A DNA stretch of 32,000 nucleotides, from contig NZ_CP064923.1 in the NCBI RefSeq assembly GCF_018336915.1, positions 5,640,001 to 5,672,000 on the forward strand, in the 5' to 3' direction. Of this stretch, positions 2,963-24,727 are shown piece after piece; positions within the stretch are counted from its first letter, which is position 1; each line of letters starts with the position of its first letter. The notes under the pieces are model-generated. The model made no database searches and was not told the DNA's origin. It worked only from the letters and a program-made list of their open reading frames with translations. The stretch is from Acaryochloris marina S15 (GTDB lineage: Bacteria > Cyanobacteriota > Cyanobacteriia > Thermosynechococcales > Thermosynechococcaceae). The translations under genes and the position numbers were made by a program.

Positions 2963-4138
2963 TTGATGATGACCCACCTGAAATTACCCCGTCGCCGCCT
3001 GTTACAAATGGCAGGTGGCATAGCATTGACACTACTGTGGCCGCACCAGGCCTATGGCCAAACTGGACGACAGGTACGAGATATTGCCAAAGCCGTAACG
3101 GTCTTGGTTTCCCCCCAAAGCAGTTCCGGGTCAGGGGTCTTGATCAAGCAGGAAGGCAGCAGCTACTACGTACTCACGGCTAAGCATGTCATAGAGTCTA
3201 CTGGTGCGGGGGAAGAGGCGGATGTGATCACTGCCGATGGCCAATCTCATGCCGTTAATACTCAGGCTATCTTGTACCTATCAGGGGTCGATTTAGCCCT
3301 GATTCGATTCGATAGTGATCGCAACTATCCGGTCGCCACCCTGGGTAACTCGGAATCCATCACCGAAACGGATACCATTTACATCGCTGGATTTCCCCTA
3401 CCGGGCCAAGCCATCACTTCATCCACCTTCACGATTACGAAGGGAGCCATCACTGGCAAAGGTCAATACCAACGGGGATACGGTCTAATTTACGACAACG
3501 TCACCCAACCGGGCATGAGTGGTGGCCCTATTCTTAGTGAAACTGGACAAGTGATTGGCATTCACGGCTTAGCAGAGGGTGAACGCGTGCAAGGAGTAGC
3601 TGTCAAGGCAGGCTTGAACTTAGGCGTACCCATCAATACGATTCTGGACCTTACACCCCTGGCCCTTAAACCAACTCCTCTGGCGGCTTCATCTCCCCCA
3701 TCTTCAGCCCCTGTAGCCTCCGCAAGTGGAGCAGAACAAACCTTTCGCGCTTTTCTAGATCAGCATTATGCAGCGATGGCCCCTTTAATCGAAACGCGGG
3801 ATGCCGCTCGGCTATTTAACTATATGCCGATCGATAAGGAACGCTTTCGCTACAGGCAGCATACTGGATTGGTCCAAAACTACAACGATCGGGTTGCTGG
3901 AGCTTCAGCGTTTTTCTCCAAAAAACCAGCCAGACAAAAATGGAAACTCTCTTACGAAATCACTGATTTACAAATGCCCACGGCGGATCAAGCCATTGTC
4001 TCTCACATCGAAACGGTAAAATGGTCCAATTGGCCAGGCTTACTACGAGGGGTATTCCGCCGCCGTGAAACCACCTCTTGGGAGCGTATCAACGGCCAAT
4101 GGAAAATTGTCTCGGTGGAAGAAGGTGAAAGGCTATAG
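2963..4138 (+). CDS. Secreted trypsin-like (S1) serine protease fused to a C-terminal NTF2/SnoaL-like domain
   Basis: Catalytic triad contexts LTAKHV, VDLALIRF and GMSGGPIL. The N-terminus PRRRLLQMAGGIALTLL resembles a Tat/Sec signal. The C-terminal ~140 aa resemble NTF2-like/DUF4440 (WERINGQWKIVSVEE). Confidence 0.85.
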   Translation: MMMTHLKLPRRRLLQMAGGIALTLLWPHQAYGQTGRQVRDIAKAVTVLVSPQSSSGSGVLIKQEGSSYYVLTAKHVIESTGAGEEADVITADGQSHAVNTQAILYLSGVDLALIRFDSDRNYPVATLGNSESITETDTIYIAGFPLPGQAITSSTFTITKGAITGKGQYQRGYGLIYDNVTQPGMSGGPILSETGQVIGIHGLAEGERVQGVAVKAGLNLGVPINTILDLTPLALKPTPLAASSPPSSAPVASASGAEQTFRAFLDQHYAAMAPLIETRDAARLFNYMPIDKERFRYRQHTGLVQNYNDRVAGASAFFSKKPARQKWKLSYEITDLQMPTADQAIVSHIETVKWSNWPGLLRGVFRRRETTSWERINGQWKIVSVEEGERL

Positions 4139-4549
4139 ATTGAGCCATTTTTCAAACTTTCCCAACATCTTCCGCAATGACTTCATCTCGACCAATTTAT
4201 ACGCTTTAGCGACAGAGACCACTCGTCGTTCTCGCTCATGGTCTTCTTGCCATCGGCCATGAAGCTGGGTCACCACCAAAGGAAACACCTGCACAGTACA
4301 GGTACTTCCCCATTTTTGATGAGCATAGGTGCCGAGCGGTTCTGTGGCAATCAAACCTTCAATCCCCGCTTCTTCCCATGCCTCTTTTGCTGCCGAATCC
4401 CAGGCCGTTAGATCCGGTTCAATTTCTCCTTTAGGAATAATCCATCGACCTCGCTTACGGGATGTAATTAAGACCACCTTCAAACCATCCGGCTGAATGA
4501 GGTAAGGCAAGGCAGCAGAGTGCTGATAGAGCCCATCAACTGGTTTCAT
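4133..4549 (-). CDS. NUDIX hydrolase
   Basis: 138-aa ORF with a Nudix box GEIEPDLTAWDSAAKEAWEEAGIEG. Confidence 0.85.
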   Translation of the reverse strand: MKPVDGLYQHSAALPYLIQPDGLKVVLITSRKRGRWIIPKGEIEPDLTAWDSAAKEAWEEAGIEGLIATEPLGTYAHQKWGSTCTVQVFPLVVTQLHGRWQEDHERERRVVSVAKAYKLVEMKSLRKMLGKFEKWLNL

Positions 4550-4628
4550 AACAGGTCACTCAAACGTTATAGGGGCGATCAACCGCTGTCTAAGAGAGTA
4601 GCGAGATCTATCCCCTTTGCCAACTCTT

Positions 4629-6374
4629 TCACCAATCTTTCAGACCGTTAGTCATCTTTTCTTGCAGCAGCTCCACTGCCACTTGCCCATCGACCGGTTT
4701 AGAGAATAAATGCCCCTGAGCTTCTTGGCATCCCATATCCAGTAAAAAGCGTCGCTGTACAGGGGTTTCAACTCCTTCAGCCGTCACATTTAACCCCAGG
4801 TCATGGGCTAACTCAATAATGGAGCGCACCAGATCGAGATTATCCACATCCATCCGTTTAATAAAGGACCGATCAATCTTCAAAGTATCCACCGGTAATC
4901 GCTGCAAATACTGCAGCGACGCATAGCCTGTTCCAAAATCATCAATACAGAGGCTGACGCCCATATTTTTAAGCTGATGGAGGGTATCGATCGCCGCTTG
5001 GTCCCGACTAAACAGCACACTCTCAGTAATTTCAATCATGAGCTGTTGCGGAGAAATACGAGTTTCCAGCAACACTTGCCTGACTTGAGATGCTAAATCC
5101 GGCTGATCGAATTGCTTAGCCGAAAAATTGACACTAATCGATAGAGGTTCTTCGGTAAATCTGCGCCACTGCTGAATGCGGAAACAGGCCTCTTTTAACA
5201 TCCACTGATCGATCTCAAAAATCAGGCCCGTTTCTTCAGCAATCGGAATAAACTCTAAAGGAGGAACCATGCCCATCTTGGGATGCATCCATCGGACTAA
5301 GGCCTCAAATCCAATAATTCTTTGATCGGCTAAACACACAATCGGCTGAAAAAACAAGTTCAGTTCTTGCTCACGCAGTGCCCGCTTCAGATCATTTTCC
5401 AGCTGCAACAGTCGAACCGCTCGCGCATGCATGGTGGGATCAAATACCACATAATTAGCTCGCCCCAGCCCTTTGGCAGAACTGACCGCTGTATTAGCAT
5501 CGCGCAGTAAATCTTCAGCCCGGTCATACTCCATCAGAGTTAAGGCAATCCCGACACTGGCCGTAATAAATAACTCTTGCCCACTCAACCGAAAAGGGGT
5601 TTGAAACTCTGCCGAAATTTGGTTGGCAGCCAATATTGCTGTGCTCGTCGCATCAATTTCATCCAACAGAATAATGAATTCATCGCCACTCAACCGGGCA
5701 AAGACATCAAATTCACCCAAGCAATTTTTCAGGCGCCAAGCAATGGAAATAAGGAGCTGATCACCGGCCAAACGGCCAAAACTGTCATTAATACTTTGAA
5801 AACGGTCAATATTGACGATTAAGAGCGCAAAATGATAGCTTTTTTTGCGCTTAGATCGTTCAAAAGCATGGGCCAACTGAATCAGAAAATAGGTTTGATT
5901 CGGCAGTCCCGTCAAGGCATCATAAAACGTCGTTTTGAGAATGCTTTCGCTGGTTTGTTTGCGCTCTTCAATAAAATCTAAAGTGCTTTCCCGTGCTTTT
6001 TGAATAAAGGATAGGAGTTCAATATATTCTCCCTCTGCAGCCTTAACGAGGAGAATTTTCTGAGATCCCAAATTTAGGGCTGCCGCCTCCAAATGAATCT
6101 CCTGATCTTGGCGATCGGCTTCACACCACATGCCCGACTTATACTGCCCTGGCTGATTGTCATGCCAAAACTCCACCGCATCTACTAGAAAATTAGCTAG
6201 AAAAGGCAAGGTCTTTTCAATCCAAGCCATATCTACGGTGAGTTGAACTTGAGGATAGAGCTGGGTAAACCAAGAAGGCGCCGTTCCTACAATTGTTAAG
6301 GAATGCTCATCAACCCGCTCTAAAATCAAAATATCTAAAGCAGAGAGTACATTTGCAGGAAGCGATGCCGTCAT
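4629..6374 (-). CDS. Sensor-GGDEF-EAL protein (c-di-GMP cyclase/phosphodiesterase)
   Basis: GGDEF domain with an SGDEF A-site (ARLSGDEFIILL) and no RxxD I-site. The EAL domain has all key blocks: EALVRW, IEITES, DDFGTGYASL, KIDRSF, AEGVET, QGHLFSKP. The ~150-aa N-terminal domain is unassigned. Confidence 0.9.
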   Translation of the reverse strand: MTASLPANVLSALDILILERVDEHSLTIVGTAPSWFTQLYPQVQLTVDMAWIEKTLPFLANFLVDAVEFWHDNQPGQYKSGMWCEADRQDQEIHLEAAALNLGSQKILLVKAAEGEYIELLSFIQKARESTLDFIEERKQTSESILKTTFYDALTGLPNQTYFLIQLAHAFERSKRKKSYHFALLIVNIDRFQSINDSFGRLAGDQLLISIAWRLKNCLGEFDVFARLSGDEFIILLDEIDATSTAILAANQISAEFQTPFRLSGQELFITASVGIALTLMEYDRAEDLLRDANTAVSSAKGLGRANYVVFDPTMHARAVRLLQLENDLKRALREQELNLFFQPIVCLADQRIIGFEALVRWMHPKMGMVPPLEFIPIAEETGLIFEIDQWMLKEACFRIQQWRRFTEEPLSISVNFSAKQFDQPDLASQVRQVLLETRISPQQLMIEITESVLFSRDQAAIDTLHQLKNMGVSLCIDDFGTGYASLQYLQRLPVDTLKIDRSFIKRMDVDNLDLVRSIIELAHDLGLNVTAEGVETPVQRRFLLDMGCQEAQGHLFSKPVDGQVAVELLQEKMTNGLKDW

Positions 6375-7372
6375 TGCATTGGGTGATAAGAATATAAGCT
6401 AGGGGCGTCAGTCATAGAATTCCCAGCAAGAGATGCCGGTCGAAAAGACTTCTGCCTTTTATCTAGCCCATCAAAGGTCAGTTTGTCGATGATCAAGGTC
6501 TTACTTTCAGAATTTTCATTTAAATTCACAGCAACATCCATAGGCTGTCCCATCACCGTTAAGGTTTTGCCAAATCCGACTTGCAGCAGGCCGATCGTGA
6601 CAATCCCTGTCGTCACCACTAGGGCACATTGGGCCGATGGGCCAATGGGGGGTTGACGATCTTCAAATAATTGGAGGATACGCACACTCGCGTCTATCGC
6701 CTGCATCGAGGAGCTACGGGTAGACGGCAACACTCCAAACACAGCCACAATAGAATTACCAATACTTTGATGAATCAAACCGCCTTCATCCAGAATGGAG
6801 GGTGAAATTGCTGACAAGTATGCATCCAATATTTTCAGCGGGTTCGAAGCAGCAATATTATCATCAAGACCCTCAATATTACAACATTTCACAACTAGAA
6901 TACTGAGAGATTTTTGCTCCCCTGCAGGCCGAATATCAAGGAAGTTTTCGGCCACGATCTCTGACTGTATTAAGTGGCCTAGAGAGCGAGCATGTTTTCG
7001 CCTCAATAGACTAAGATCATTGACCTTTTGTTGAATGAGAACATGCTCTTCATTTTCAGAAGTCGCATCAAATAGGATGACCCAATCATGCTGGTTGTCG
7101 ACAAAGAGATGCACTTCAGCAATAACATCTTCGTCTAGCTGCATAAATGGAATATGCATGGCCGCTTCTTGCAACGGCAATAAGCCTGCCAAAAAGAAAA
7201 TTTGATCATCAATAGACTGGTTTAGCTCTAAAAGAGCCAAACCATACCGCTCGCAAGCACCACCAAAAGCCAGTAATTTGCCAGTTTTAGTGACTTGTAG
7301 ATAAGCTGGAAAGCGATCTCGAACGACTGTAGAACAAAGAAATGTCACAATCGGTTGTGGGAGATTTAACAT
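6371..7372 (-). CDS. Sensor domain plus degenerate class-III nucleotidyl cyclase homology domain (predicted inactive)
   Basis: The C-terminal half aligns by eye to the CHD pattern (LSILVVKCCNIEGL / GGLIHQSIGNSIVAVFG / TLTVMGQPMDVAVNLNE). Both metal-binding Asp residues and the Asn/Arg transition-state residues are replaced. ATGA overlap with the GGDEF-EAL gene. Confidence 0.7.
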   Translation of the reverse strand: MLNLPQPIVTFLCSTVVRDRFPAYLQVTKTGKLLAFGGACERYGLALLELNQSIDDQIFFLAGLLPLQEAAMHIPFMQLDEDVIAEVHLFVDNQHDWVILFDATSENEEHVLIQQKVNDLSLLRRKHARSLGHLIQSEIVAENFLDIRPAGEQKSLSILVVKCCNIEGLDDNIAASNPLKILDAYLSAISPSILDEGGLIHQSIGNSIVAVFGVLPSTRSSSMQAIDASVRILQLFEDRQPPIGPSAQCALVVTTGIVTIGLLQVGFGKTLTVMGQPMDVAVNLNENSESKTLIIDKLTFDGLDKRQKSFRPASLAGNSMTDAPSLYSYHPMQ

Positions 7373-7378
7373 GGGTAA

Positions 7379-7870
7379 CTAAATCATCATTTGCGCCAAT
7401 TTTATAAAGCACTCTTCTACCCCCAATCCAGTCCTTGCACTCCCCAAACAGTATGTCCATTGCCGCTGGGATAATTCTTCGAGATCTTCCTCTCCGATTT
7501 CCCAGTCTTGGCTTAGATCATACTTATTGAAAATCGTAATAAATGGCACTTTGCCAATGGTGTCTTCCACTTTGGTTTGTAATTGGAAGACTGTTCCTAA
7601 TGTATCTCGCCGAGTACCATCCACCACCAAAATATAGGCGGCGGATCCTCGCAAGTAAGACATTCTAATTTTTTGGAATTCATCTTCACCATGAATGTCC
7701 CATAGGATTAAATTTAAGTCTTGATCCGCAACGGTTACGCTTTTTTTATCGATTTTGACGCCAACAGTCGTTTGATATTTATCAGAATAAATGCCTTGAA
7801 CATATCGAGCGACAAGGCTCGTTTTCCCAGTCGCAAACGCACCGACCATACAAATCTTTTTTTGGAGCAT
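7379..7870 (-). CDS. Ras/Rab-like small GTPase
   Basis: 163 aa. G1 GAFATGKT, switch I TTVGV, G3 WDIHGED, G4 NKYD, G5 SAR. Confidence 0.85.
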   Translation of the reverse strand: MLQKKICMVGAFATGKTSLVARYVQGIYSDKYQTTVGVKIDKKSVTVADQDLNLILWDIHGEDEFQKIRMSYLRGSAAYILVVDGTRRDTLGTVFQLQTKVEDTIGKVPFITIFNKYDLSQDWEIGEEDLEELSQRQWTYCLGSARTGLGVEECFIKLAQMMI

Positions 7871-7876
7871 AAGCTA

Positions 7877-9631
7877 TTAATCAGCGTCCGATGGATTAAC
7901 AAAAATAACTTTAAACGTGACCTTGCGATTGGATTTAGAGATCTTAGCCGATTCTGAATTTGCGACTTCAGGAGGCTCAATACTCACTGCCTGTAACTGA
8001 CTTTTCTCAATTCCCTGCTTGGATAGCAAAGAAATGATGGCTTTAGCACGGGTCTCCCGTACATAAAGATTAATCAATTCAGACCCACTGGTATCGGTAT
8101 GTCCTTCAACCAAAACAGCAACGGTTTGGTTAATGGTTTTTGCTGTTTTAGTCAATTTTTTAATTTCTGCCACCAGAATTTTCAATTTGGCATCTTGCTT
8201 AGGCACCAACTGAGCATTTTGGGTAAATAAGAGGGTTTGAGCCTCAATTTTGGTCTTAATACTGGTCAGTACTCCCGCTTCAACTGGAATGACCTCTTGG
8301 GTATTGAAACGGGTGACATTAGGCAGTCGCACGGCTAACTGATTCGCCTGGGTTATCCAGGCTTGAGGGGCTGTCCCCGTCGCTTCAACAGCGCCATTGG
8401 CATCGACGTCTAGGGCAACTGTTTCAGGAGGCTGCAGCAGCGATTTCACTCTGGATTTCACAAATGCAGTATCGAAGGATAGATAGGGCTCCCAATGAAA
8501 ATCAATCTTGTCTGGATCGAGCTCGGTGGTTGAGATCAGGTCGGTTGGCTCAGGTGCTAGGGGATCTTTCAAGCCGGATATCACATATTTGCCGTCTTTT
8601 TTGGCAGTTTGCATCACGACGATGCCAGACTCTTGATTCAGTTGATCGACAAAGCTCCGTACTTGATTACGCTCATGGTTAGACCACATGCCCCATGCCC
8701 CTAATCCCAGAATGAGAATCCCTGCTGCTCCACCAATCCACTTCAAGGGAGACGATTTTTTCTGTTTCGTTTGATATTGGGACTGCAAACATTCTTCTAG
8801 ATAAGGCTGGCTGGGTTCAAAGGCACTGCTATCTCCTTGAAACTCGTGCAGCTGGCTTTCTTGGACTAGGTGAATTCGTTCTAGGGCATTTTCCATCGTT
8901 TGCCGCAGTTTTCCAGGAGGATTTCCCCGAATAACGCAGGCAATAATAGCTTGGGGACCTTCATTGACCCAAATCGTTAACTCTCCTACCTGCAGGCTTC
9001 CTAAGGTATCGTCACTCACACTAAAAGAGTCACGAACAAAGTCTTGAATCGCCGTAAACATAGCAGAGACCAAGTCTGCATCTTGAGCTGCAGCCGTTGG
9101 TGCTGCTAGATGCTGCAGCACCAAGCCCGAGTTTTTGTGAATCAGAAAAACCTGTTCGACCTGATAGACCAGGGTGCGCAACAATAGCACTTCCGCAAAA
9201 GATTTGCCTGTACGCCAGGCTTCAAACCGCCAACCTAAGCTTTGGGGAGAAAGGCTATGTTCGAGCCCTTGGTTCAGGGAGTCGGTTAAATTCTGTATGG
9301 CCACTGCGATCGCTTTTCGTATCGCCGGACCCATGATGGGAAAAAGGGCCTCAGACAAGATATTTTGATCGGTATTAACCGAAGATTTAATCGCCTGTTC
9401 TACCGTAGGCACCACCGCTTTAGAGACCGTTTTGTCCCCTGTCTCTAGGGTCAGTTGAATCGCTTGGGGCAACACTCGACTGACATCTTCCGAGCGGAGT
9501 TTGGTGTTCTCAAACTGATCTTTTAGATCAGGGCCAATCAGTAAGTTTCTGAGCTCATTCAACTCACTAGCCTGGGATATCTCTTTAGGGTGAGAGTTCC
9601 CACGATTTACGTTAGAAGATAAGTCACTCAT
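7877..9631 (-). CDS. Transmembrane protein: cytoplasmic Roadblock/LC7-like segment, one TM helix, periplasmic OmpA_C peptidoglycan-binding domain
   Basis: OmpA_C block VEGHTDTSGSELINLYVRETRAKAIISLL...NRKVTFKV. TM helix WIGGAAGILILGLGAWGMW. The Roadblock-like call rests on the pattern VFLIHKNSGLVLQHLAA..DADLVSAMFTAIQDFVRDSF..IIACVIRG, read by eye only. Confidence 0.8.
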   Translation of the reverse strand: MSDLSSNVNRGNSHPKEISQASELNELRNLLIGPDLKDQFENTKLRSEDVSRVLPQAIQLTLETGDKTVSKAVVPTVEQAIKSSVNTDQNILSEALFPIMGPAIRKAIAVAIQNLTDSLNQGLEHSLSPQSLGWRFEAWRTGKSFAEVLLLRTLVYQVEQVFLIHKNSGLVLQHLAAPTAAAQDADLVSAMFTAIQDFVRDSFSVSDDTLGSLQVGELTIWVNEGPQAIIACVIRGNPPGKLRQTMENALERIHLVQESQLHEFQGDSSAFEPSQPYLEECLQSQYQTKQKKSSPLKWIGGAAGILILGLGAWGMWSNHERNQVRSFVDQLNQESGIVVMQTAKKDGKYVISGLKDPLAPEPTDLISTTELDPDKIDFHWEPYLSFDTAFVKSRVKSLLQPPETVALDVDANGAVEATGTAPQAWITQANQLAVRLPNVTRFNTQEVIPVEAGVLTSIKTKIEAQTLLFTQNAQLVPKQDAKLKILVAEIKKLTKTAKTINQTVAVLVEGHTDTSGSELINLYVRETRAKAIISLLSKQGIEKSQLQAVSIEPPEVANSESAKISKSNRKVTFKVIFVNPSDAD

Positions 9632-9815
9632 GAAACATCAGGCTGCAATGATTTGATCCGGCAATATCTCAAGCAATCTACTATCGCTGTAGATATTGCC
9701 ATAGTAAAGGTCATGATGGTAATCGGCTTGAAGTTTTATTGCGCATAGCCCAATCCAATGTGACTCGCTAATGATGCAAATTTTGCCACGAGTGAACACT
9801 GGTATGAATTGAAGC

Positions 9816-10445
9816 CTAGGAGTTAGCGCGAATATTCAGCGCTAACTCGCTAAAGAGATTAGCTAAGTTAGCTCGATCACTATCATCAGCCGAATTGAGT
9901 GCTTGCACTTCACGTTCCAACAAGGCTCTAAGCTCGGCATGCTTATCATCAAAGTTGCCGCTTAAGGATGTCAGTTTTTCTTCTAGGGTAGCAATCATTG
10001 TGGAGTGTCCCTGCTCTACATCTTCCCCTAGCTGCTCAAGCTGAGCTTCGACAGCAGATATCCCTTGTTGATACTTTTTATTAAGGTCAGATACCGCTGC
10101 AGTTTGGGAATCATGATTGTCTTGCAGCGTTTGGGTTAGAGCCTGTAAATCTTGGCGGATAGACGTTTCTAAAGATTGAAGATTCTGATGGAACTGCTCG
10201 CGAATATCTGCGCATTCGCGATTGAGCTGATTTTCTAGCTGTTGCAAGCGCTGTTCTTGTCTTTGCACCTGCTGACCGAACAGCAAATCTCTGATCTTGT
10301 TCAGAGTGTCGAAATCGACTGCTTCATTCGCAGAGGCAGCGACTAACGCATCCGTATTCACAGGCTGTTCTATTGTCGCCTGATCTTCAGAAGAGGACGT
10401 TGCCAGCGCTGTCGTTGTTTTTTCTTCAGAAATTGTCATGGCCAC
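9816..10445 (-). CDS. Acidic coiled-coil protein
   Basis: 209 aa, Q/E/L-rich heptad-like sequence (QRQEQRLQQLENQLNRE...). Same strand as, and upstream of, the GTPase operon. Confidence 0.6.
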   Translation of the reverse strand: MAMTISEEKTTTALATSSSEDQATIEQPVNTDALVAASANEAVDFDTLNKIRDLLFGQQVQRQEQRLQQLENQLNRECADIREQFHQNLQSLETSIRQDLQALTQTLQDNHDSQTAAVSDLNKKYQQGISAVEAQLEQLGEDVEQGHSTMIATLEEKLTSLSGNFDDKHAELRALLEREVQALNSADDSDRANLANLFSELALNIRANS

Positions 10446-10641
10446 ATTGCGGTAGTTTACGACTTAATTGAGCCAGTCATGTTCACGGCCTGAGCGGCGT
10501 TACTGCACTATGCACTAGACATAGATTTCCCTACATTAGCTTAGATCTTAGCATTGCTTTACAGAACATGACTGGATCCACTCACTATCTCCGCCACCAC
10601 TCTTTTATCAGCGTCGATTAGACCCTCACAATGGGGCTGGA

Positions 10642-11451
10642 TTACTCGGCTACCAGCACTAGATGATAGCGATAGAGAGCAACCGGTTGATTCAAAGCTT
10701 GAAAATAGTTTGGATCCTGAGGGGATAAGTAGATAGCCGTGACTTGATCCGCATCAATTTGGGCCGGACTCGTGTTGATGTAGCGATAGGAAGTCGTATT
10801 TTCGACTTGGTTGAGATAAATTTGGGAGCTGCTGCGAAACTCTTGCTGAAAAAGTTCGCTAGCAACCCAGGTGTCGTTCTTAGCATCGAATTCAGTGGTG
10901 CGATCGCTAATGGTCGACACTAACTGTCGCCCCTGATCAAGCACCGTCGTTTGGCGATTGGGAAAGCGAGGATCAACCTTCACCGTTTGCACAGCCCCCT
11001 CTCCTAGGTAAGCAGCGGCTAAACTCCGACCATTGAACGCTAAGTCAGCAATGACCGCAGGTTTACGAGATAACAACTCCCACGGAGAAGCATTGGCTAG
11101 CACTTTTGCCTTTAAGGGCGTCCGTTCTTCTACAAAACGCACCGCAAAGGTCACAGGCTGATCTACCAAATTCTCGTTATCGGCATAACCAGGGGTAACT
11201 AATTTGGGCGCGAGGGGCGCCGCCAGATCCACTAGGGTACTGGTGACTTGCCAATCGCCTAAAAACCAGTCGGGATAGACCAAGTCCCCAGATGCAGGCT
11301 TAAGTACCGGTTTCCCTTGCCATTCTGGAAAGGCCGCTAGCCGTTCCGTTAACGGACTAGCCAGCCCTGGTAAAGACCAGCAGCAGAGCAATAGTGCAAG
11401 ACAGATACCCCACCCTTTCACTCTGTAAGGCCGCCAATCTTTACCGTTCAC
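10642..11451 (-). CDS. Secreted hypothetical protein
   Basis: 269-aa ORF with signal-peptide-like GWGICLALLLCCWSLPGLA. It starts 11 nt after the thiC stop on the same strand. Confidence 0.65.
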   Translation of the reverse strand: MNGKDWRPYRVKGWGICLALLLCCWSLPGLASPLTERLAAFPEWQGKPVLKPASGDLVYPDWFLGDWQVTSTLVDLAAPLAPKLVTPGYADNENLVDQPVTFAVRFVEERTPLKAKVLANASPWELLSRKPAVIADLAFNGRSLAAAYLGEGAVQTVKVDPRFPNRQTTVLDQGRQLVSTISDRTTEFDAKNDTWVASELFQQEFRSSSQIYLNQVENTTSYRYINTSPAQIDADQVTAIYLSPQDPNYFQALNQPVALYRYHLVLVAE

Positions 11452-11462
11452 ATCCTTTTCTC

Positions 11463-12935
<1,473 letters not shown>

Positions 12936-13304
12936 ACACAGATCCTAGCATTGACGGGCAAGACCCATCTCTGCAATTTTGTTTAAGTTTTCCAAGAATT
13001 TGTGGAGTTTTGTCTGACTTTTAAAACGAGTCGGTTAGGGACATCAGAATTTTCTTGTCTTTGGTAGAAATATGAGAATAGTCGATGTATATCATGGCTT
13101 AATCTCCAAAATCTTCTATTAAACTTACCAGAAGCTCTTTTTTGAGAAAAAAGACTCAATTCTAAAAAAAGAGTGGCAACTCCCCAGAGAAACACAGTAG
13201 GCTGGCAAACGTAGGGCTATGCTGCCATTGCAGCGATTCCCTACCGATGGGTGACCGTTGCCCGTCAATCGGGTTGAGCCAATATTCAAAACGTTCGGAA
13301 AACA

Positions 13305-14969
13305 GTGATGAGACGACCGTACTTCAATTTCCGTCGATATAGCCGCTTGCTGAGTGTGGTGTTGTCCGTGGCTTTGCTGCAAGCTGGGCCAATGCTAGCG
13401 GCTGAGCGTATCTTTTTATCCTTTCTATTCTTAGAGCGTTCTATTCCCATTCGTGATTTGGAACTCTATGCCAAGGAAGGTCGCAAGAGCAAAGCGTTGG
13501 CCCCTTATTTGGGCTACTTTAAACCAGAGCAACAAACTCAACTGCGAGCCAGCTTACAAGAGCGCCTCCCCCTCAACGCAGTAGCCGTTGCCCAGTTTCT
13601 ATACACCCCCGTCGGTGAAGCCTTACTCAAACGCATCCAACAGGTAGTGCGGACCAAGTCTGGACAAGGCAGTTTTTTTGCCCTCCGCTCTGCTTTAATT
13701 TTGGCCGCTAAAGATCCTGAAGGATTAACGGCCCTGAGCGTTTTGCGCCATTTCCCCAATGCTGGCGTCCAAGTAGATGTCAATACGGCCCTTGAACTAC
13801 TCAATCAAGTGCAAACGGCAGTCAAAACTACTAATGCCACCGTTAACGCAGTGATTCAGCAATCTAAAGCGGATCCTCAAGCCGATAGCCTAGCAGGCTG
13901 GTCTTTATCTCAGTCGGGTCTTTACGATTGGGAGCGCATCACCTTAGAGAACTTAAAGGATGATAGTGAAAAGCGCTTGAAGTACACTGGCACGGCCCGT
14001 GACTTTGCTGCTGATCTGTATTTTCCAACCACAGCTTCAGACACCCCCTATCCGGTGCTGGTGATTTCTCATGGATTTAACTCCGACCGCACCACCTATG
14101 CTTACCTAGCACAGCATTTAGCCTCCCATGGGTATGTCATCGTCATGCCGGAACATTCTGGCAGTAACGGTCAGCAAATCGTTGACCTCCTGCAAGGGCG
14201 AGCGCAAGACGTCACCGATCCCACTGAATTCATTGATCGCCCTTTAGATGTCAGCTATCTCCTCGATCAACTGGCCCAGACATCCATTCCAGATCCACGA
14301 TTCAAAGGCAGCCTCAATTTAGAGCAGGTTGGCATTCTAGGTCATTCCTATGGGGGATATACGGGTTTCGCCCTAGCGGGAGCTACGCCTAATTACAAAC
14401 AATTACAGCAGGCTTGCCAAACCGGCTTAGAATCATCCCTCAACATTTCCCTCGCCTTGCAGTGTCAAGCCCTGCAAACAGCAGATAAAACCGTGGATTT
14501 GAAGGATTCGAGAATTCAATCCGTAGTGGCCATTAGCCCCATTGGCAGCAGTTTATTTGGAAAATCCGGCTATCAAACGATCCAGGTTCCTGTGATGATA
14601 GTGGCCGGAAGTGCAGATACAATCGCACCGGTACTACCGGAACAAATCCAACCCTTTCAGTGGTTAACGACCCCTGAAAAACAGTTGGTCTTGATTAATA
14701 ATGGCTCCCATTACTCTACGGGTAATACATCTGCCAGTTCCCCTGATGTTTTGTCTGCCTTAGGGACGGGAGATGGTCCGAGTCCATTAGGCCGCTACTA
14801 TACCAAAGCTCTGAGTACGGCGTTCTTTGGCCGCTATGTTCAGGGTCAGGAACAGTTCGCCCCGTTTCTAACTTCCAGCTATGCTGCCAATCTCAGTCGT
14901 GAACCTTTAACCTTGCATCTGACGCCCACCCTGACTTTCCCCGCAGCCCCAGCCAAGCAGGACTCTTGA
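13305..14969 (+). CDS. DUF1400 domain plus alpha/beta hydrolase (dienelactone hydrolase/PAF-acetylhydrolase-like)
   Basis: The N-terminal ERIFLSFLFLERSIPIRDLELYAKEG region is typical of cyanobacterial DUF1400. Nucleophile elbow GHSYGG. Signal-like N-terminus. GTG at 13305, ATG at 13308. Confidence 0.85.
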   Translation: MMRRPYFNFRRYSRLLSVVLSVALLQAGPMLAAERIFLSFLFLERSIPIRDLELYAKEGRKSKALAPYLGYFKPEQQTQLRASLQERLPLNAVAVAQFLYTPVGEALLKRIQQVVRTKSGQGSFFALRSALILAAKDPEGLTALSVLRHFPNAGVQVDVNTALELLNQVQTAVKTTNATVNAVIQQSKADPQADSLAGWSLSQSGLYDWERITLENLKDDSEKRLKYTGTARDFAADLYFPTTASDTPYPVLVISHGFNSDRTTYAYLAQHLASHGYVIVMPEHSGSNGQQIVDLLQGRAQDVTDPTEFIDRPLDVSYLLDQLAQTSIPDPRFKGSLNLEQVGILGHSYGGYTGFALAGATPNYKQLQQACQTGLESSLNISLALQCQALQTADKTVDLKDSRIQSVVAISPIGSSLFGKSGYQTIQVPVMIVAGSADTIAPVLPEQIQPFQWLTTPEKQLVLINNGSHYSTGNTSASSPDVLSALGTGDGPSPLGRYYTKALSTAFFGRYVQGQEQFAPFLTSSYAANLSREPLTLHLTPTLTFPAAPAKQDS

Positions 14970-23493: not shown

Positions 23494-24727
23494 TAGATCT
23501 TCAGAAAAGCATCCGTGGTTTTAGCGACACTACATCTTCATTAAATATAGTAACTAGCTCCTGATACTCTTAGCTCTGGCAAGGATTTCAAGATTATCAG
23601 AGGTCATCCAGTATGCTCGCACAATTCAAACTGCGCTTTACCCAATCAACACGCAAAAAGATTGAAGCTAAACTGCGCCAGGCATACGGGAGTCAGAATT
23701 TACGTCTGGTCAAACGTATTAGTGCTTTATTGCAGCTTGGTCAAGGTGGTTCAGTGGCACAGGTAGCTGAAACATTGGCACTAGGCGAACAAACGATCAG
23801 GGATTATCTGCATGCATTTCTAAAACGAGGTATCGCTAGCTTTAGATACAAAGCGTCTCAAGGACGTCGCAGCAAACTCACTCCACGGCAACGACAACAG
23901 CTCAAGTCATGGATTAAAGCAGGTCCGCTCAAAGCTGGATACGAGTGTGGTTGTTGGAGTGCATTAATGGTTCAAGACCTGATTGCGAAACGCTTCAATG
24001 TTTCCTATCATCCCCATTATGTGAGTACTCTACTGAGGAACTTAGGCTTTTCATTTCAAAGAGCACGGTTTGTTGCAGCTCATCTCAATGAAGCCAAGCG
24101 ACAAGAATGGATGACACACAAATGGCCTGAGATTTTGCGTTTATCAGCAGCCAAAGATGCCCTAATTTTATTTGGGGATGAGGCCAGTTTTGCGCAGTGG
24201 GGGTCGTTAAGCTACACCTGGAGTCTTCGTGGAGACCAGCCAACATTGCCCACCAGTGGTAAACGGAAGGCTTACAAGGTGTTTGGATTAATTGATTATC
24301 ATTCTGGTCAGTTCTTCTATCAAGGTCAGACGGGACGCTTCAATTCTGAAGGGTATACTGCTTTTCTAACTCAAGTACTCCAGCAGACTCACAAGCATAT
24401 TATTCTCATTCAGGACGGGGCTAGATATCACACCAGTAAAGCAACTAAGCAGTTCTTTGACCAGCAATCCGCTCGCCTTACTCCTTTCCAATTACCCACA
24501 TATTCTCCTGACTTCAACCCAATTGAATTCTTGTGGAAGAAACTCAAAAAACGCAGCACACACCTACGGTTCTTCAAGCAATTTGATGACTTAGTTCAGC
24601 AGGTCGATGAGGGGCTACTGTACTTTAGTCAGACTCCCAATGAAATTACTGTCTTAATGGGCAAATATTGCAAAACCTTGGGTACACAAGCTGCCTAGCT
24701 AATCACGGATCTTTATCTGTAGATCTA
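23494..24727 (+). mobile_element. IS630-family insertion sequence (1234 bp)
   Basis: 24-bp imperfect terminal inverted repeats: TAGATCTTCAGAAAAGCATCCGTG versus the reverse complement TAGATCTACAGATAAAGATCCGTG. TA target duplication at 23492-23493 and 24728-24729. One transposase ORF. Confidence 0.9.
23613..24698 (+). CDS. IS630-family DDE transposase
   Basis: 361 aa. N-terminal HTH region and a DDE triad context: LFGDEASF, IQDGARYHTS, DFNPIEFLWKKLK. Confidence 0.9.
   Translation: MLAQFKLRFTQSTRKKIEAKLRQAYGSQNLRLVKRISALLQLGQGGSVAQVAETLALGEQTIRDYLHAFLKRGIASFRYKASQGRRSKLTPRQRQQLKSWIKAGPLKAGYECGCWSALMVQDLIAKRFNVSYHPHYVSTLLRNLGFSFQRARFVAAHLNEAKRQEWMTHKWPEILRLSAAKDALILFGDEASFAQWGSLSYTWSLRGDQPTLPTSGKRKAYKVFGLIDYHSGQFFYQGQTGRFNSEGYTAFLTQVLQQTHKHIILIQDGARYHTSKATKQFFDQQSARLTPFQLPTYSPDFNPIEFLWKKLKKRSTHLRFFKQFDDLVQQVDEGLLYFSQTPNEITVLMGKYCKTLGTQAA

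Follow-up and report, generated by a model that had tools for sequence, protein, structure and literature searches.

The five co-directional open reading frames that occupy the minus strand at positions 4629-10445 of the window, by which we mean the whole 32,000-nucleotide stretch of Acaryochloris marina S15 DNA that was analysed, are a conserved and tightly spaced signalling cassette, and almost certainly represent in Acaryochloris the Group 1 Rup system catalogued by comparative genomics (Wuichet and Sogaard-Andersen, 2014; Genome Biol Evol 7:57, PMC4316618). The best explanation as a whole, to which we would give a probability of about 0.6, is a five-protein Group 1 Rup module organised around a Rab/Ras-like switch, with the mechanism set out further below; that this mechanism operates exactly as proposed is a good deal less assured, somewhat short of an even chance. 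In reading order the genes are:

9816..10445, minus strand: DUFY, the first gene of the cassette, a 209-aa cytoplasmic coiled-coil protein (open reading frame; weak coiled-coil-type Pfam matches)
7877..9631, minus strand: DUFX:OmpA, 584 aa, with a cytoplasmic conserved domain, one transmembrane (TM) helix, a periplasmic region and an OmpA-like domain
7379..7870, minus strand: Rup, a 163-aa Rab/Ras-like GTPase of Group 1 (Pfam Ras)
6371..7372, minus strand: a 333-aa protein with an N333 domain and a degenerate cyclase (open reading frame)
4629..6374, minus strand: a 581-aa protein with NGE, GGDEF and EAL domains (open reading frame)

A gap of 184 nt separates DUFY from DUFX:OmpA, and the last four genes are joined just as the initial annotation had described them, since the reading-frame positions and the junction sequences give 6 nt between DUFX and Rup (GAT TAA tagctt ATG), 6 nt between Rup and the 333-aa gene (ATT TAG ttaccc ATG), and an ATGA overlap between the latter and the 581-aa gene (CAATGACG). 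The genes that flank the cassette in the window are housekeeping genes, with no defence island.

The same order is kept far beyond this genome. Among 80 related loci that were retained, and counting for each gene only those with enough flanking sequence to be scored, DUFX is preceded by a coiled-coil DUFY homologue in 72/74 and followed by the Rup GTPase in 76/78, after which come a PAS-like protein of the N333 type at 59 of the 76 loci, and then an output protein carrying the NGE domain (70/74). From DUFX to Rup the gap has a median of 14 nt, from Rup to N333 one of 0 nt, and the only gene families conserved in at least 60 loci are the five of the cassette; such an arrangement is far beyond chance, and the conservation of neighbourhood by which the initial annotation had proposed to check itself is thereby found. 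Full-length DUFX:OmpA homologues occur at 40-50% identity throughout the cyanobacteria, the cassette is found in unicellular as well as filamentous lineages, and its inheritance across the phylum looks vertical. The output, for its part, is a histidine kinase in most loci and a GGDEF-EAL protein in only 5/70, mainly in Acaryochloris; the coupling to c-di-GMP turnover that had been read from the letters is thus a lineage-specific trait.

The published catalogue describes a neighbourhood formed by a Ras-superfamily small GTPase without the G3 Gln, a coiled-coil DUFY, a DUFX:OmpA whose DUFX domain is called unknown, and a GGDEF/EAL or kinase output whose N-terminal region carries an invariant Gln, proposed to serve Rup in trans; its Table S2 lists A. 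marina MBIC11017 AM1_2998 as '<Rup<DUFX:OmpA<DUFY', of 163 aa (Wuichet and Sogaard-Andersen, 2014). The MBIC11017 locus is collinear with the window, and there is no defining difference between the published system and the cassette described here. The combination of GTPase, OmpA anchor and c-di-GMP enzyme, whose novelty the initial annotation had implied, is therefore not a new system, having been published in 2014 with the A. marina locus included, and a search of the literature brought to light no experimental study of Group 1 Rup. What goes beyond the 2014 description is (i) the predicted longin/Roadblock-like fold inside DUFX; (ii) a fifth conserved component, the PAS-like protein, unmentioned there; (iii) and finally, a graded decay of the cyclase, together with the fusion, in Acaryochloris, of the PAS-like protein to the dead cyclase.

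Rup matches Pfam Ras (E 1.6e-29), has Rab23 as its best PDB match (E 4e-26) and is named 'Rab family GTPase' by NCBI. By its sequence it keeps all the nucleotide-binding motifs, the Ras/Rab motifs noted at first sight being present at residues 10-18, 32-38, 57-63, 115-118 and 144-146; across 78 orthologues G1 to G5 are conserved, and G1, G2, G4 and G5 are invariant. The Glu that had been noticed in place of the catalytic Gln of Ras (Q61) recurs in 77/78 orthologues, and a bulky Phe occupies the position of Ras G12 in 76/78, so that Rup would need a partner.

Candidates for this partnership are the two proteins encoded downstream, both of which open with a conserved sensor-like domain ending in a helix with invariant Gln (QQ in one, Q..R in the other):

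6968..7372, minus strand: N333 domain, residues 1-135 of the 333-aa protein, a predicted PAS-like fold plus a long helix with invariant Q114-Q115 (AF2 model, alignment)
6437..6925, minus strand: degenerate class III nucleotide cyclase domain, residues ~150-312 of the same protein (PDB sequence match, Foldseek)
5955..6374, minus strand: NGE domain, residues 1-140 of the 581-aa protein, N-terminal and conserved, its motif IQKAR bearing the invariant Q125 and R128 (alignment of 40 sequences)
5460..5927, minus strand: GGDEF domain with a degenerate active site (Pfam GGDEF, E 5.8e-41)
4695..5396, minus strand: EAL domain with intact catalytic motifs (Pfam EAL, E 4.8e-77)

The N333 domain is modelled as beta-beta-alpha-alpha-beta-beta-beta followed by a helix at 104-135; pLDDT is ~80-86 over residues 21-100, which form the PAS-like core, and falls to ~55-67 in the helix, and its Gln-Gln pair is invariant in alignments of 44-83 sequences. 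It is encoded on its own in most loci, as a protein of ~130 aa, and elsewhere this type of domain is fused to kinases, to sigma54 activators, and to cyclases that retain their catalytic residues. For the 333-aa protein Pfam gives no match; its residues ~150-300 match class III cyclases of the PDB by sequence (E ~2e-4), and the C-terminal half of its model resembles the catalytic domains of Cya2, CyaC, CyaB and RhGC (Foldseek E ~1e-11, TM-score 0.67-0.80). Of the five canonical catalytic residues, the two metal-binding Asp have become K and N, the substrate Lys Q, and the transition-state Asn and Arg D and N; the cyclase had rightly been called dead, and in place of catalysis the domain probably serves dimerisation or regulation. 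The NGE domain, with which the histidine kinases of most other loci also begin, corresponds to the N-terminal region with invariant glutamine of the earlier survey (Wuichet and Sogaard-Andersen, 2014). Sequence comparison detects no homology between N333 and NGE, and neither matches by sequence a Pfam family or a GAP in the PDB. Behind NGE the GGDEF site reads NID for DID and SGDEF for GGDEF, and lacks RxxD, at positions that we take to correspond to D327, K332 and G368 of PleD, while the EAL motifs are all there (EAL, EITE, DDFGTG, KIDRSF, EGVET, QGHLF); going by these motifs, the protein looks like a phosphodiesterase.

The part that would join this switch to the envelope is DUFX:OmpA, within which the following can be distinguished:

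9200..9571, minus strand: residues 21-144, a helical region, conserved and modelled with low confidence (AF2 helices H2-23 to H110-121, pLDDT ~45-70)
8846..9199, minus strand: residues 145-262, predicted longin/Roadblock-like alpha-beta-beta-alpha-beta-beta-beta-alpha domain (AF2 and Foldseek)
8684..8740, minus strand: single TM helix, residues 298-316, glycine-rich and without Asp (the sole strong hydropathy peak)
8297..8644, minus strand: conserved periplasmic module, residues 330-445, without a Pfam match (conserved columns)
7934..8218, minus strand: OmpA-like peptidoglycan-binding domain, residues 472-566 (Pfam PF00691, 32.7 bits against a cutoff of 27.2)

The single TM helix and OmpA domain of the initial annotation are thus recovered. 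A Lys-rich stretch precedes the helix, so that a topology with N inside and C outside fits; the periplasmic module shows the conserved columns GxxDPLA and WxPYxS...LxPPxT, and is duplicated in one member of the family. The OmpA-like domain matches the C-terminal domains of Pal, YiaD and OprF in a PDB sequence search, and the Asp of its GHTD motif is present in the window protein and variable across the family. DUFX:OmpA is accordingly predicted to be an inner-membrane protein whose C-terminus reaches the cell wall. Such an architecture also invites comparison with a stator or with the Zorya defence machine, in which case DUFX would be an anchor of the MotB/ZorB type and DUFY a tail like that of ZorA; some homologues carry the annotation 'flagellar motor protein MotB', and among PADLOC and NCBIfam models DUFY weakly matches ZorA tails (E ~1e-4), the C-terminus of DUFX weakly matching ZorB (E ~1e-6). 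These matches, however, are confined to the coiled coil and to the generic OmpA-like domain, a channel protein of the MotA/ExbB type is absent from the cassette, and the Asp-less TM helix, the housekeeping neighbours and the seemingly vertical inheritance all speak against such a machine, which is largely refuted and which we regard as most improbable.

On the cytoplasmic side, the DUFX part used alone as query retrieves 4409 cluster representatives at E<=1e-3, and many residues of the helical region 21-144 are invariant in the alignment. The AF2 model of the cytoplasmic part, obtained from an input alignment of 97 sequences that all share 53% identity or more with the query, is of medium confidence (mean pLDDT 66, pTM 0.48), and within residues 145-262 the ten-residue blocks mostly average 66-92, two that contain loops being lower, at 59 and 51. 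Among the top 50 Foldseek matches of the model in the PDB, longin/Roadblock-family proteins or complexes with such subunits predominate overwhelmingly, with AP sigma subunits, Mon1-Ccz1, Sec22b, MglB and LAMTOR as the top-ranked folds (9ddt_B, E 2e-4; 5ldd_B/E of Mon1-Ccz1, E 5e-4; 1ifq of Sec22b, TM-score 0.76; the MglB entries 3t12, 1j3w and 3t1s, TM-score ~0.55). At sequence level the Robl_LC7 match stays below threshold, scoring 14.1 bits where the cutoff is 23 (E 0.039), and is seen in one member of the seven that were tested, although it is in register with the start of the alpha/beta domain; a profile search against PDB sequences gave no match. The modelling thus suggests that residues 145-262 carry a longin/Roadblock-like fold, of the kind that regulates such GTPases elsewhere; the segment that the initial annotation had likened to Roadblock regulators falls inside this domain, and the likeness holds at the level of prediction.

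The fold match is no proof of a regulating role, because the profilin-like topology of the sheet is common to PAS and GAF domains. DUFX could be a wall-anchored scaffold or sensor only, in a Group 1 Rup system where Rup is regulated solely, and in trans, by the Gln of the output's N-terminal domain, with an exchange factor either unneeded or other. To this reading, which we hold to be unlikely though of some weight, belong the presence of NGE with its invariant Gln and Arg in 70 of 74 loci, the published hypothesis built upon that Gln, the sub-threshold Roadblock score, and a fold class shared with domains that do not bind GTPases; but few parts of the protein are as well conserved as the alpha/beta domain, which holds invariant residues by the dozen, DUFX stands tightly spaced directly upstream of Rup in almost every locus, and it is not PAS or GAF domains that head the list of fold matches but, from rank 1 down, longin/Roadblock proteins, in many cases regulators of GTPases.

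If we accept the regulatory reading of DUFX, the wall-anchored protein, probably a dimer, would form together with the coiled-coil DUFY a fixed membrane platform, where its longin/Roadblock-like domain would bind Rup and set its nucleotide state through exchange or GTPase activation, the two ways in which MglB, Mon1-Ccz1 and Ragulator-type domains set that of their GTPases. Rup-GTP would then engage the N-terminal domains of the pseudo-cyclase and GGDEF-EAL proteins, which would be its effectors and may also give the missing catalytic Gln in trans, turning Rup off; the universal GAP cannot be a protein of the N333 type, because this is absent from 17/76 loci. The net output would be an altered hydrolysis of c-di-GMP in Acaryochloris and an altered histidine-kinase activity in most other cyanobacteria.

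Of the known systems, MglA/MglB of Myxococcus xanthus and Thermus thermophilus likewise places the gene of a small Ras-like GTPase beside that of a protein with a Roadblock-type fold. Rup, however, is Rab/Ras-like, sits on the other prokaryotic branch and keeps the G3 Asp that is missing in MglA-family proteins, none of the Rup genes surveyed was coupled to an MglB homologue (Wuichet and Sogaard-Andersen, 2014), and the Roadblock-like domain, with its sub-cutoff score, is embedded here in a 584-aa wall-anchored membrane protein instead of standing alone at ~160 aa. A polarity or motility switch of this kind, in which the wall-anchored Roadblock domain would mark a site and the GTPase would cycle there and position type IV pili or other machinery, could appeal to the likeness of the DUFX fold to MglB and MglC, and to the fixed spatial landmark that a peptidoglycan anchor would provide; but the gene context shows neither a stand-alone MglB nor conserved pilus or motility genes nearby, the outputs are conserved as kinases or c-di-GMP enzymes, which points to signalling rather than to the positioning of a machine, and the carriers are both unicellular and filamentous, so that we consider this switch improbable.

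The actinobacterial conservons (CvnA-D, Mfp), to which Rup systems were already likened by Wuichet and Sogaard-Andersen (2014), likewise bring together, in one multi-gene cassette, a small GTPase and a protein of Roadblock type with a membrane-linked component and an output of histidine-kinase type. Their GTPases are of the MglA family, their CvnC (DUF742) has no homologue in the Rup cassette, they have neither the OmpA anchor nor the coiled-coil DUFY, and in the Rup cassette the kinase or GGDEF-EAL protein is soluble, the membrane component being a separate protein. The pseudo-cyclase protein resembles proteins with PAS, signalling-helix and class III cyclase parts, such as soluble guanylate cyclase, Cya2 and CyaC, the alpha chains of the first aligning with its model across ~400 columns (Foldseek), but none of the five canonical catalytic residues is preserved in it. 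As in the GTPases served by trans-acting GAPs (the TBC RabGAPs with their Arg/Gln dual finger, the RapGAPs with their Asn thumb), Rup is without a catalytic Gln of its own, and its candidate partners offer an invariant QQ or QKAR; the N333 fold, by contrast, is predicted to be PAS-like, and the role assigned to the Gln residues is the one put forward as a hypothesis in 2014. Finally, Mon1-Ccz1, Ragulator/LAMTOR, GATOR1, FLCN-FNIP and AP sigma, which include the best fold matches of residues 145-262, are membrane-tethered platforms for Rab, Rag and Arf GTPases; the sequence identity of such regulators to the DUFX domain is just 8-21%, the likeness could be one of homology or of convergence, and they are typically heterodimers of two such domains, none of them bearing a peptidoglycan anchor like that of DUFX.

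The cassette is made up of five co-directional genes on the minus strand, occupying positions 4629-10445 of the window, and all five open reading frames are found where the initial annotation had placed them:

9816-10445, minus strand, DUFY, a 209-aa coiled-coil protein
7877-9631, minus strand, DUFX:OmpA (hereafter DUFX), a 584-aa membrane protein with a predicted wall anchor
7379-7870, minus strand, Rup, a 163-aa Rab/Ras-like GTPase
6371-7372, minus strand, the 333-aa protein
4629-6374, minus strand, the 581-aa GGDEF-EAL protein

The close packing that had been claimed for the last four genes can likewise be read from the sequence, the DUFX gene lying 6 nt upstream of the Rup gene (TAA-tagctt-ATG), the Rup gene being followed after another 6 nt by the next one (TAG-ttaccc-ATG), and the final pair sharing an ATGA overlap; a gap of 184 nt separates the DUFY gene from the DUFX gene. 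The cassette proteins are identical to entries of Acaryochloris sp. 'Moss Beach' / A. marina. Promoter and terminator scans returned counts equal to the shuffled expectation, and are therefore uninformative on transcripts. In the surroundings, a TPP riboswitch (Rfam RF00059, 64.6 bits; 12847-12940, minus strand) sits directly upstream of thiC (11463-12839, minus strand), an ordinary arrangement; a trypsin-like protease gene (2963-4138, plus strand) and a NUDIX gene (4133-4549, minus strand) are convergent, with 3′ ends that overlap by 6 nt (4133-4138); and, about 13 kb from the cassette, an IS630-type transposase gene (23613-24698, plus strand) with DDE_3 and HTH domains suggests an insertion sequence there.

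Prokaryotic small GTPases of the Ras superfamily are split into the MglA and Rup families, and the Group 1 Rup proteins, in which the glutamine of the G3 motif is missing, came out as the prokaryotic proteins nearest to eukaryotic Rab, Ras, Rho and Ran (Wuichet & Sogaard-Andersen 2014, PMC4316618). The genes of this group have three conserved partners, namely: (i) a coiled-coil cytoplasmic protein; (ii) a DUFX-type protein, whose conserved unknown domain often precedes a membrane helix and an OmpA domain; and (iii) an output protein, as a rule either a histidine kinase or a fusion of diguanylate cyclase and phosphodiesterase, with an N-terminal region containing an invariant glutamine which, as those authors suggested, is perhaps given to the GTPase in trans (PMC4316618). 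No Rup gene was coupled to an MglB homologue, and DUFX was called unknown (PMC4316618).

In the window, Rup is a single-domain Ras-superfamily GTPase with motifs G1-G5, whose 163 aa fall within the 150-240 aa of the group, and which keeps the Asp of G3 and lacks the catalytic Gln (WD58-I-H-G-E62); its gene is accompanied by a DUFX gene coding for a TM helix and an OmpA domain, by the gene of the coiled-coil DUFY, and by an output protein, the 581-aa one, with the invariant Gln in its N-terminal region (Q125). Orthology points to the same place, as Table S2 of PMC4316618 lists AM1_2998 of A. marina MBIC11017 as '<Rup<DUFX:OmpA<DUFY', with 163 aa, and the MBIC11017 locus in our set (L001), which from its length and layout we infer to be AM1_2998, is collinear with that of the window, the two DUFX proteins being 84% identical. 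The block in the window is thus a catalogued member of a known system, and we put the probability that it belongs to the Group 1 Rup systems at about 0.95. The cassette is already in the literature down to the species' own locus, as part of a published system that is purely computational, so the novelty that the initial annotation saw in joining a regulator-like module, a peptidoglycan anchor and c-di-GMP turnover does not hold; its anatomy of the cassette was largely right, down to the guessed likeness to Roadblock and the inactive cyclase. In the searchable literature, outside which many subscription journals lie, citations of the 2014 paper were found and no experiments on a Group 1 Rup protein. 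To that paper the present analysis adds a predicted fold for DUFX, another conserved component, the fifth, and precisely defined residues for mutation.

A scan of one genome per species gave at least 595 loci with a DUFX relative, the best 80 of which were analysed, the synteny counts being restricted to loci with enough flanking sequence for scoring. These 80 loci are mostly cyanobacterial, with a few MAGs labelled Acidobacteriota, deltaproteobacteria, Desulfobacteraceae, Clostridia and Sericytochromatia. In these loci, the order of the five families is conserved: a DUFY homologue lies upstream of DUFX in 72 of 74 loci and Rup downstream of it in 76 of 78, a protein related to residues 1-135 of the 333-aa protein (N333) comes next after Rup in 59/76, and one headed by a domain like residues 1-140 of the 581-aa protein (NGE) then follows in 70/74, the median gap being 14 nt from DUFX to Rup and 0 nt from Rup to the gene that follows it. 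When the neighbours were clustered all against all, only the five cassette families reached at least 60 loci; no other conserved neighbour, be it a response regulator or genes for pili, appeared, the next commonest, in at most 29 loci, being transporters and a Usp protein. A role in polarity or motility like that of MglA/MglB, which the pairing of a small GTPase with a Roadblock-like protein had brought to mind, is not backed by the gene neighbourhood. Just upstream of the cassette, the gene for a DUF6816 protein (10642-11451, minus strand) is syntenic only in the Acaryochloris/Acaryochloridaceae loci L001-L004, and for this reason is probably not a component of the system.

The last component is the variable one: the output of the Nostocales loci is an HATPase_c kinase of ~370 aa, and that of the loci outside the cyanobacteria a hybrid kinase. 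A GGDEF-EAL output occurs in five loci only, from Acaryochloris and one Thermosynechococcaceae MAG, and the link to c-di-GMP is thus a lineage-specific choice of output and not a defining feature of the cassette. On a Coleofasciculaceae contig (L023), two copies of the cassette core lie ~5 kb apart (4591-7660 and 9181-13567), one consisting of DUFX:OmpA, Rup and an intact-looking cyclase, and the other of DUFY, DUFX:OmpA, Rup and a kinase-type output.

The GTPase itself matches the Pfam Ras model with an E of 1.6e-29, is named 'Rab family GTPase' by NCBI, and has as its nearest solved relatives Rab23 (E 4e-26), an Asgard Rab, and other Rab and Rap proteins. In the 78 orthologues, the P-loop GAFATGKTS, the switch I Thr (T35), DxxG, NKxD and SAK/R show little or no variation; the Asp of G3 is present in 78/78, the position of Ras Q61 is Glu in 77/78, as had been noticed for the window protein, and that of Ras G12 is Phe in 76/78 (P-loop at 7817-7843, minus strand). 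Judging from Ras, both a bulky side chain at position 12 and the loss of Gln61 should leave a GTPase with very low intrinsic hydrolysis. By analogy, the intrinsic GTP hydrolysis of Rup would be very low and an arginine finger of the RasGAP style unlikely, so that Rup may need a partner, in agreement with the initial annotation and with PMC4316618. The P-loop Phe is unusual among Ras-superfamily proteins and apparently is not discussed in PMC4316618.

With regard to who that partner could be, the first ~140 residues of the 581-aa protein are the output-protein domain of PMC4316618. In an alignment of 40 NGE sequences, Q125 and R128 (IQKAR) are invariant, and the same type of domain also heads the HATPase_c kinases of other loci. 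The remainder matches the Pfam GGDEF and EAL models (EAL, E 4.8e-77), and all six EAL motifs (EAL, E(I/L)TE, DDFGTG, KxD, EGVE, QG) are present. The GGDEF domain lacks the GG[DE]EF site and the metal-binding Asp of active diguanylate cyclases: it reads NID instead of DID, with the Asp replaced, and has Gln at a further position, which we take to correspond to PleD D327 and K332, respectively; there is no RxxD, and the window strain and MBIC11017 both have SGDEF for GGDEF. Judging by these motifs, the protein most likely acts as a phosphodiesterase, its GGDEF domain being regulatory.

The 333-aa protein, with no Pfam match, has full-length relatives in Acaryochloridaceae only. Its first ~135 residues belong to a family of 282 proteins, also lacking a Pfam model, nearly all of which are stand-alone 'hypothetical proteins' of ~130 aa, and the same type of domain also heads one histidine kinase, two sigma54 activators and one recognisable cyclase. 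In the AlphaFold2 model (mean pLDDT 73, and ~80-86 in the N-terminal core, residues 21-100), a beta-beta-alpha-alpha-beta-beta-beta unit is followed by a long helix (104-135), on which sits an invariant Q114-Q115 pair, and then by an alpha/beta domain. With Foldseek, this C-terminal half matches the class III cyclases Cya2, CyaC, CyaB and RhGC (E ~1e-11, TM 0.67-0.80), and the full-length model aligns with the alpha chains of soluble guanylate cyclase, with their layout of PAS, coiled-coil and cyclase. The cyclase had been called dead, and the alignment to Cya2 and to the intact cassette homologues of L023 and L045 bears this out: the cyclase homology domain fold is there, and all five catalytic residues are lost, K, N, Q, D and N standing in the window protein for the two metal-binding Asp, the substrate-defining Lys and the Asn and Arg of the transition state. 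The homologues form a gradient, in which the five residues are all kept in L023 (6641-7660) and L045 (2121-3143), partly lost in four loci (L005, L027, L077, L080), and all lost in Acaryochloris (window 6437-6925), the domain being absent in Nostocales. The conserved element of this protein is the PAS-like domain, not the cyclase. Between N333 and NGE, hhalign gives a probability below 1% and HMM cross-searches an E above 0.03 in a tiny database, and therefore they are treated as two separate families; BLASTP of the 333-aa against the 581-aa protein gave no match, nor did the profiles of either domain find a meaningful one among PDB sequences.

The cytoplasmic part of DUFX is strongly conserved and belongs to a large family that Pfam does not model; a search at E<=1e-3 finds 4409 cluster representatives. 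Residues 21-300 were modelled with AlphaFold2 from 97 homologues whose identity to the query is 53% or more. The model is of medium overall quality (mean pLDDT 66), and after low-confidence helices it contains a predicted alpha-beta-beta-alpha-beta-beta-beta-alpha domain at residues 145-262, where most 10-residue blocks average a pLDDT of 66-92 and two blocks containing loops 59 and 51. When the PDB is searched with Foldseek, the matches, beginning with the top-ranked one, are proteins of the longin/Roadblock family or complexes in which such subunits occur:

AP-1/AP-2 sigma subunits, best E 2e-4
Mon1-Ccz1, exchange factor for Ypt7, E 5e-4
Sec22b longin domain, TM 0.76, rmsd 2.6
Thermus MglB (3t12, 1j3w, 3t1s), TM ~0.55
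MglC (7ct3)
LAMTOR/Ragulator subunits, Rag C-terminal domains, and GATOR1 and FLCN-FNIP components

At the level of sequence, the Pfam Robl_LC7 model (PF03259) aligns to the window DUFX in register with the domain start, with 14.1 bits for a cutoff of 23 (E 0.039), and it does not match six other members of the family; a profile of the alpha/beta domain had no meaningful match among PDB sequences, MglB included. Thus, the segment that had been likened to Roadblock does lie in a domain whose longin/Roadblock-like fold is supported as a prediction, but its sequence does not establish membership of the family. No later paper that gives DUFX this fold was found, and for that reason the assignment appears to be an addition to the 2014 description.

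Further along DUFX there is a single hydrophobic helix (residues 298-316) preceded by a Lys-rich stretch, which would fit a cytoplasmic N-terminus and a periplasmic C-terminal domain. The latter, at residues 472-566, matches Pfam OmpA (PF00691) with 32.7 bits for a cutoff of 27.2 and shows GHTD...N...R in the window protein, with an Asp that is variable within the family; it is OmpA-like and predicted to bind peptidoglycan. Between the two, residues 330-445 (8297-8644, minus strand) form a well conserved module with the patterns GxxDPLA and WxPYxS...LxPPxT, with no Pfam match, tandemly duplicated in one homologue (P0040); this module could be the sensing part.

A membrane protein with an OmpA-like domain also invites comparison with MotB-like stator anchors and with the Zorya defence system. 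DUFY, for which Pfam gives weak matches of coiled-coil type only, has many weak PADLOC matches to the cytoplasmic tails of ZorA (9816-10445, minus strand; best E 1e-4), and the OmpA region of DUFX one to ZorB (7877-8300, minus strand; E 9e-7); the PADLOC matches are weak and limited to the coiled-coil, OmpA and cyclase-fold regions. Both readings fail because the cassette has no channel protein of the MotA, ExbB or ZorA type and the TM helix of DUFX, WIGGAAGILILGLGAWGMW, contains no Asp; as there is no MotA-like channel, the ZorA and ZorB matches probably reflect generic coiled-coil and OmpA similarity.

If these elements are put together, the cassette could work as follows: (i) DUFX, in the inner membrane and tied to the peptidoglycan, would form a stationary platform together with the coiled-coil DUFY; (ii) its longin/Roadblock-like domain would bind Rup and control its nucleotide state; (iii) Rup-GTP would engage the two proteins that come next at their PAS-like N-terminal domains, which would be effectors and maybe donors of the missing Gln; (iv) and finally, the activity of the output enzyme would shift, being c-di-GMP hydrolysis in Acaryochloris and kinase activity elsewhere. 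As a whole, we give this mechanism somewhat less than an even chance. The main rival explanation keeps the idea of 2014, in which the output-protein domain, with its invariant glutamine, is the GAP, and DUFX a scaffold only. A further reading, in which the conserved cytoplasmic domain of DUFX is a true longin/Roadblock regulator of Rup, as an exchange factor or a GAP platform, kept in a fixed position by the peptidoglycan anchor, and the downstream PAS-like domains give a finger of Gln, or of Gln plus Arg, in trans, seems to us rather unlikely.

If DUFX were such a regulator, the pairing of a GTPase with a longin/Roadblock protein would extend beyond the MglA branch to the branch nearest eukaryotic Rab, Ras, Rho and Ran, it would predate eukaryotes on both branches, and there would be a new route by which the state of the cell wall is reported to second-messenger or two-component signalling. 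If, in addition, the Gln were supplied from downstream, the cassette would be a compact and testable model of Ras-like switches in bacterial signalling before eukaryotes, and would show how envelope state could reach c-di-GMP or kinase outputs in cyanobacteria. In any case, concrete, testable hypotheses can be drawn from the longin/Roadblock-like domain predicted in DUFX, from the PAS-like protein that is the fifth conserved member, and from the invariant Gln and Arg, on how the closest bacterial relatives of Rab and Ras are regulated.

Among the known systems with which the cassette can be compared, the actinobacterial conservons (CvnA-D) have four core genes that include a DUF742 protein (CvnC) and a membrane histidine kinase (CvnA), a set that the cassette does not share, there being no DUF742 match in its proteins and nothing CvnC-like among the five conserved families. 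MglA has a G3 motif without the conserved Asp (PMC4316618), in contrast to Rup, where D58 is found in 78/78 orthologues. A partner of the MglB type would be expected to be recognised as Roadblock/LC7 by sequence, at or above the PF03259 cutoff, unlike DUFX with its 14.1 bits against 23; and yet, at the level of prediction, residues 145-262 of DUFX share with MglB the Roadblock/longin fold, alpha-beta-beta-alpha-beta-beta-beta(-alpha).
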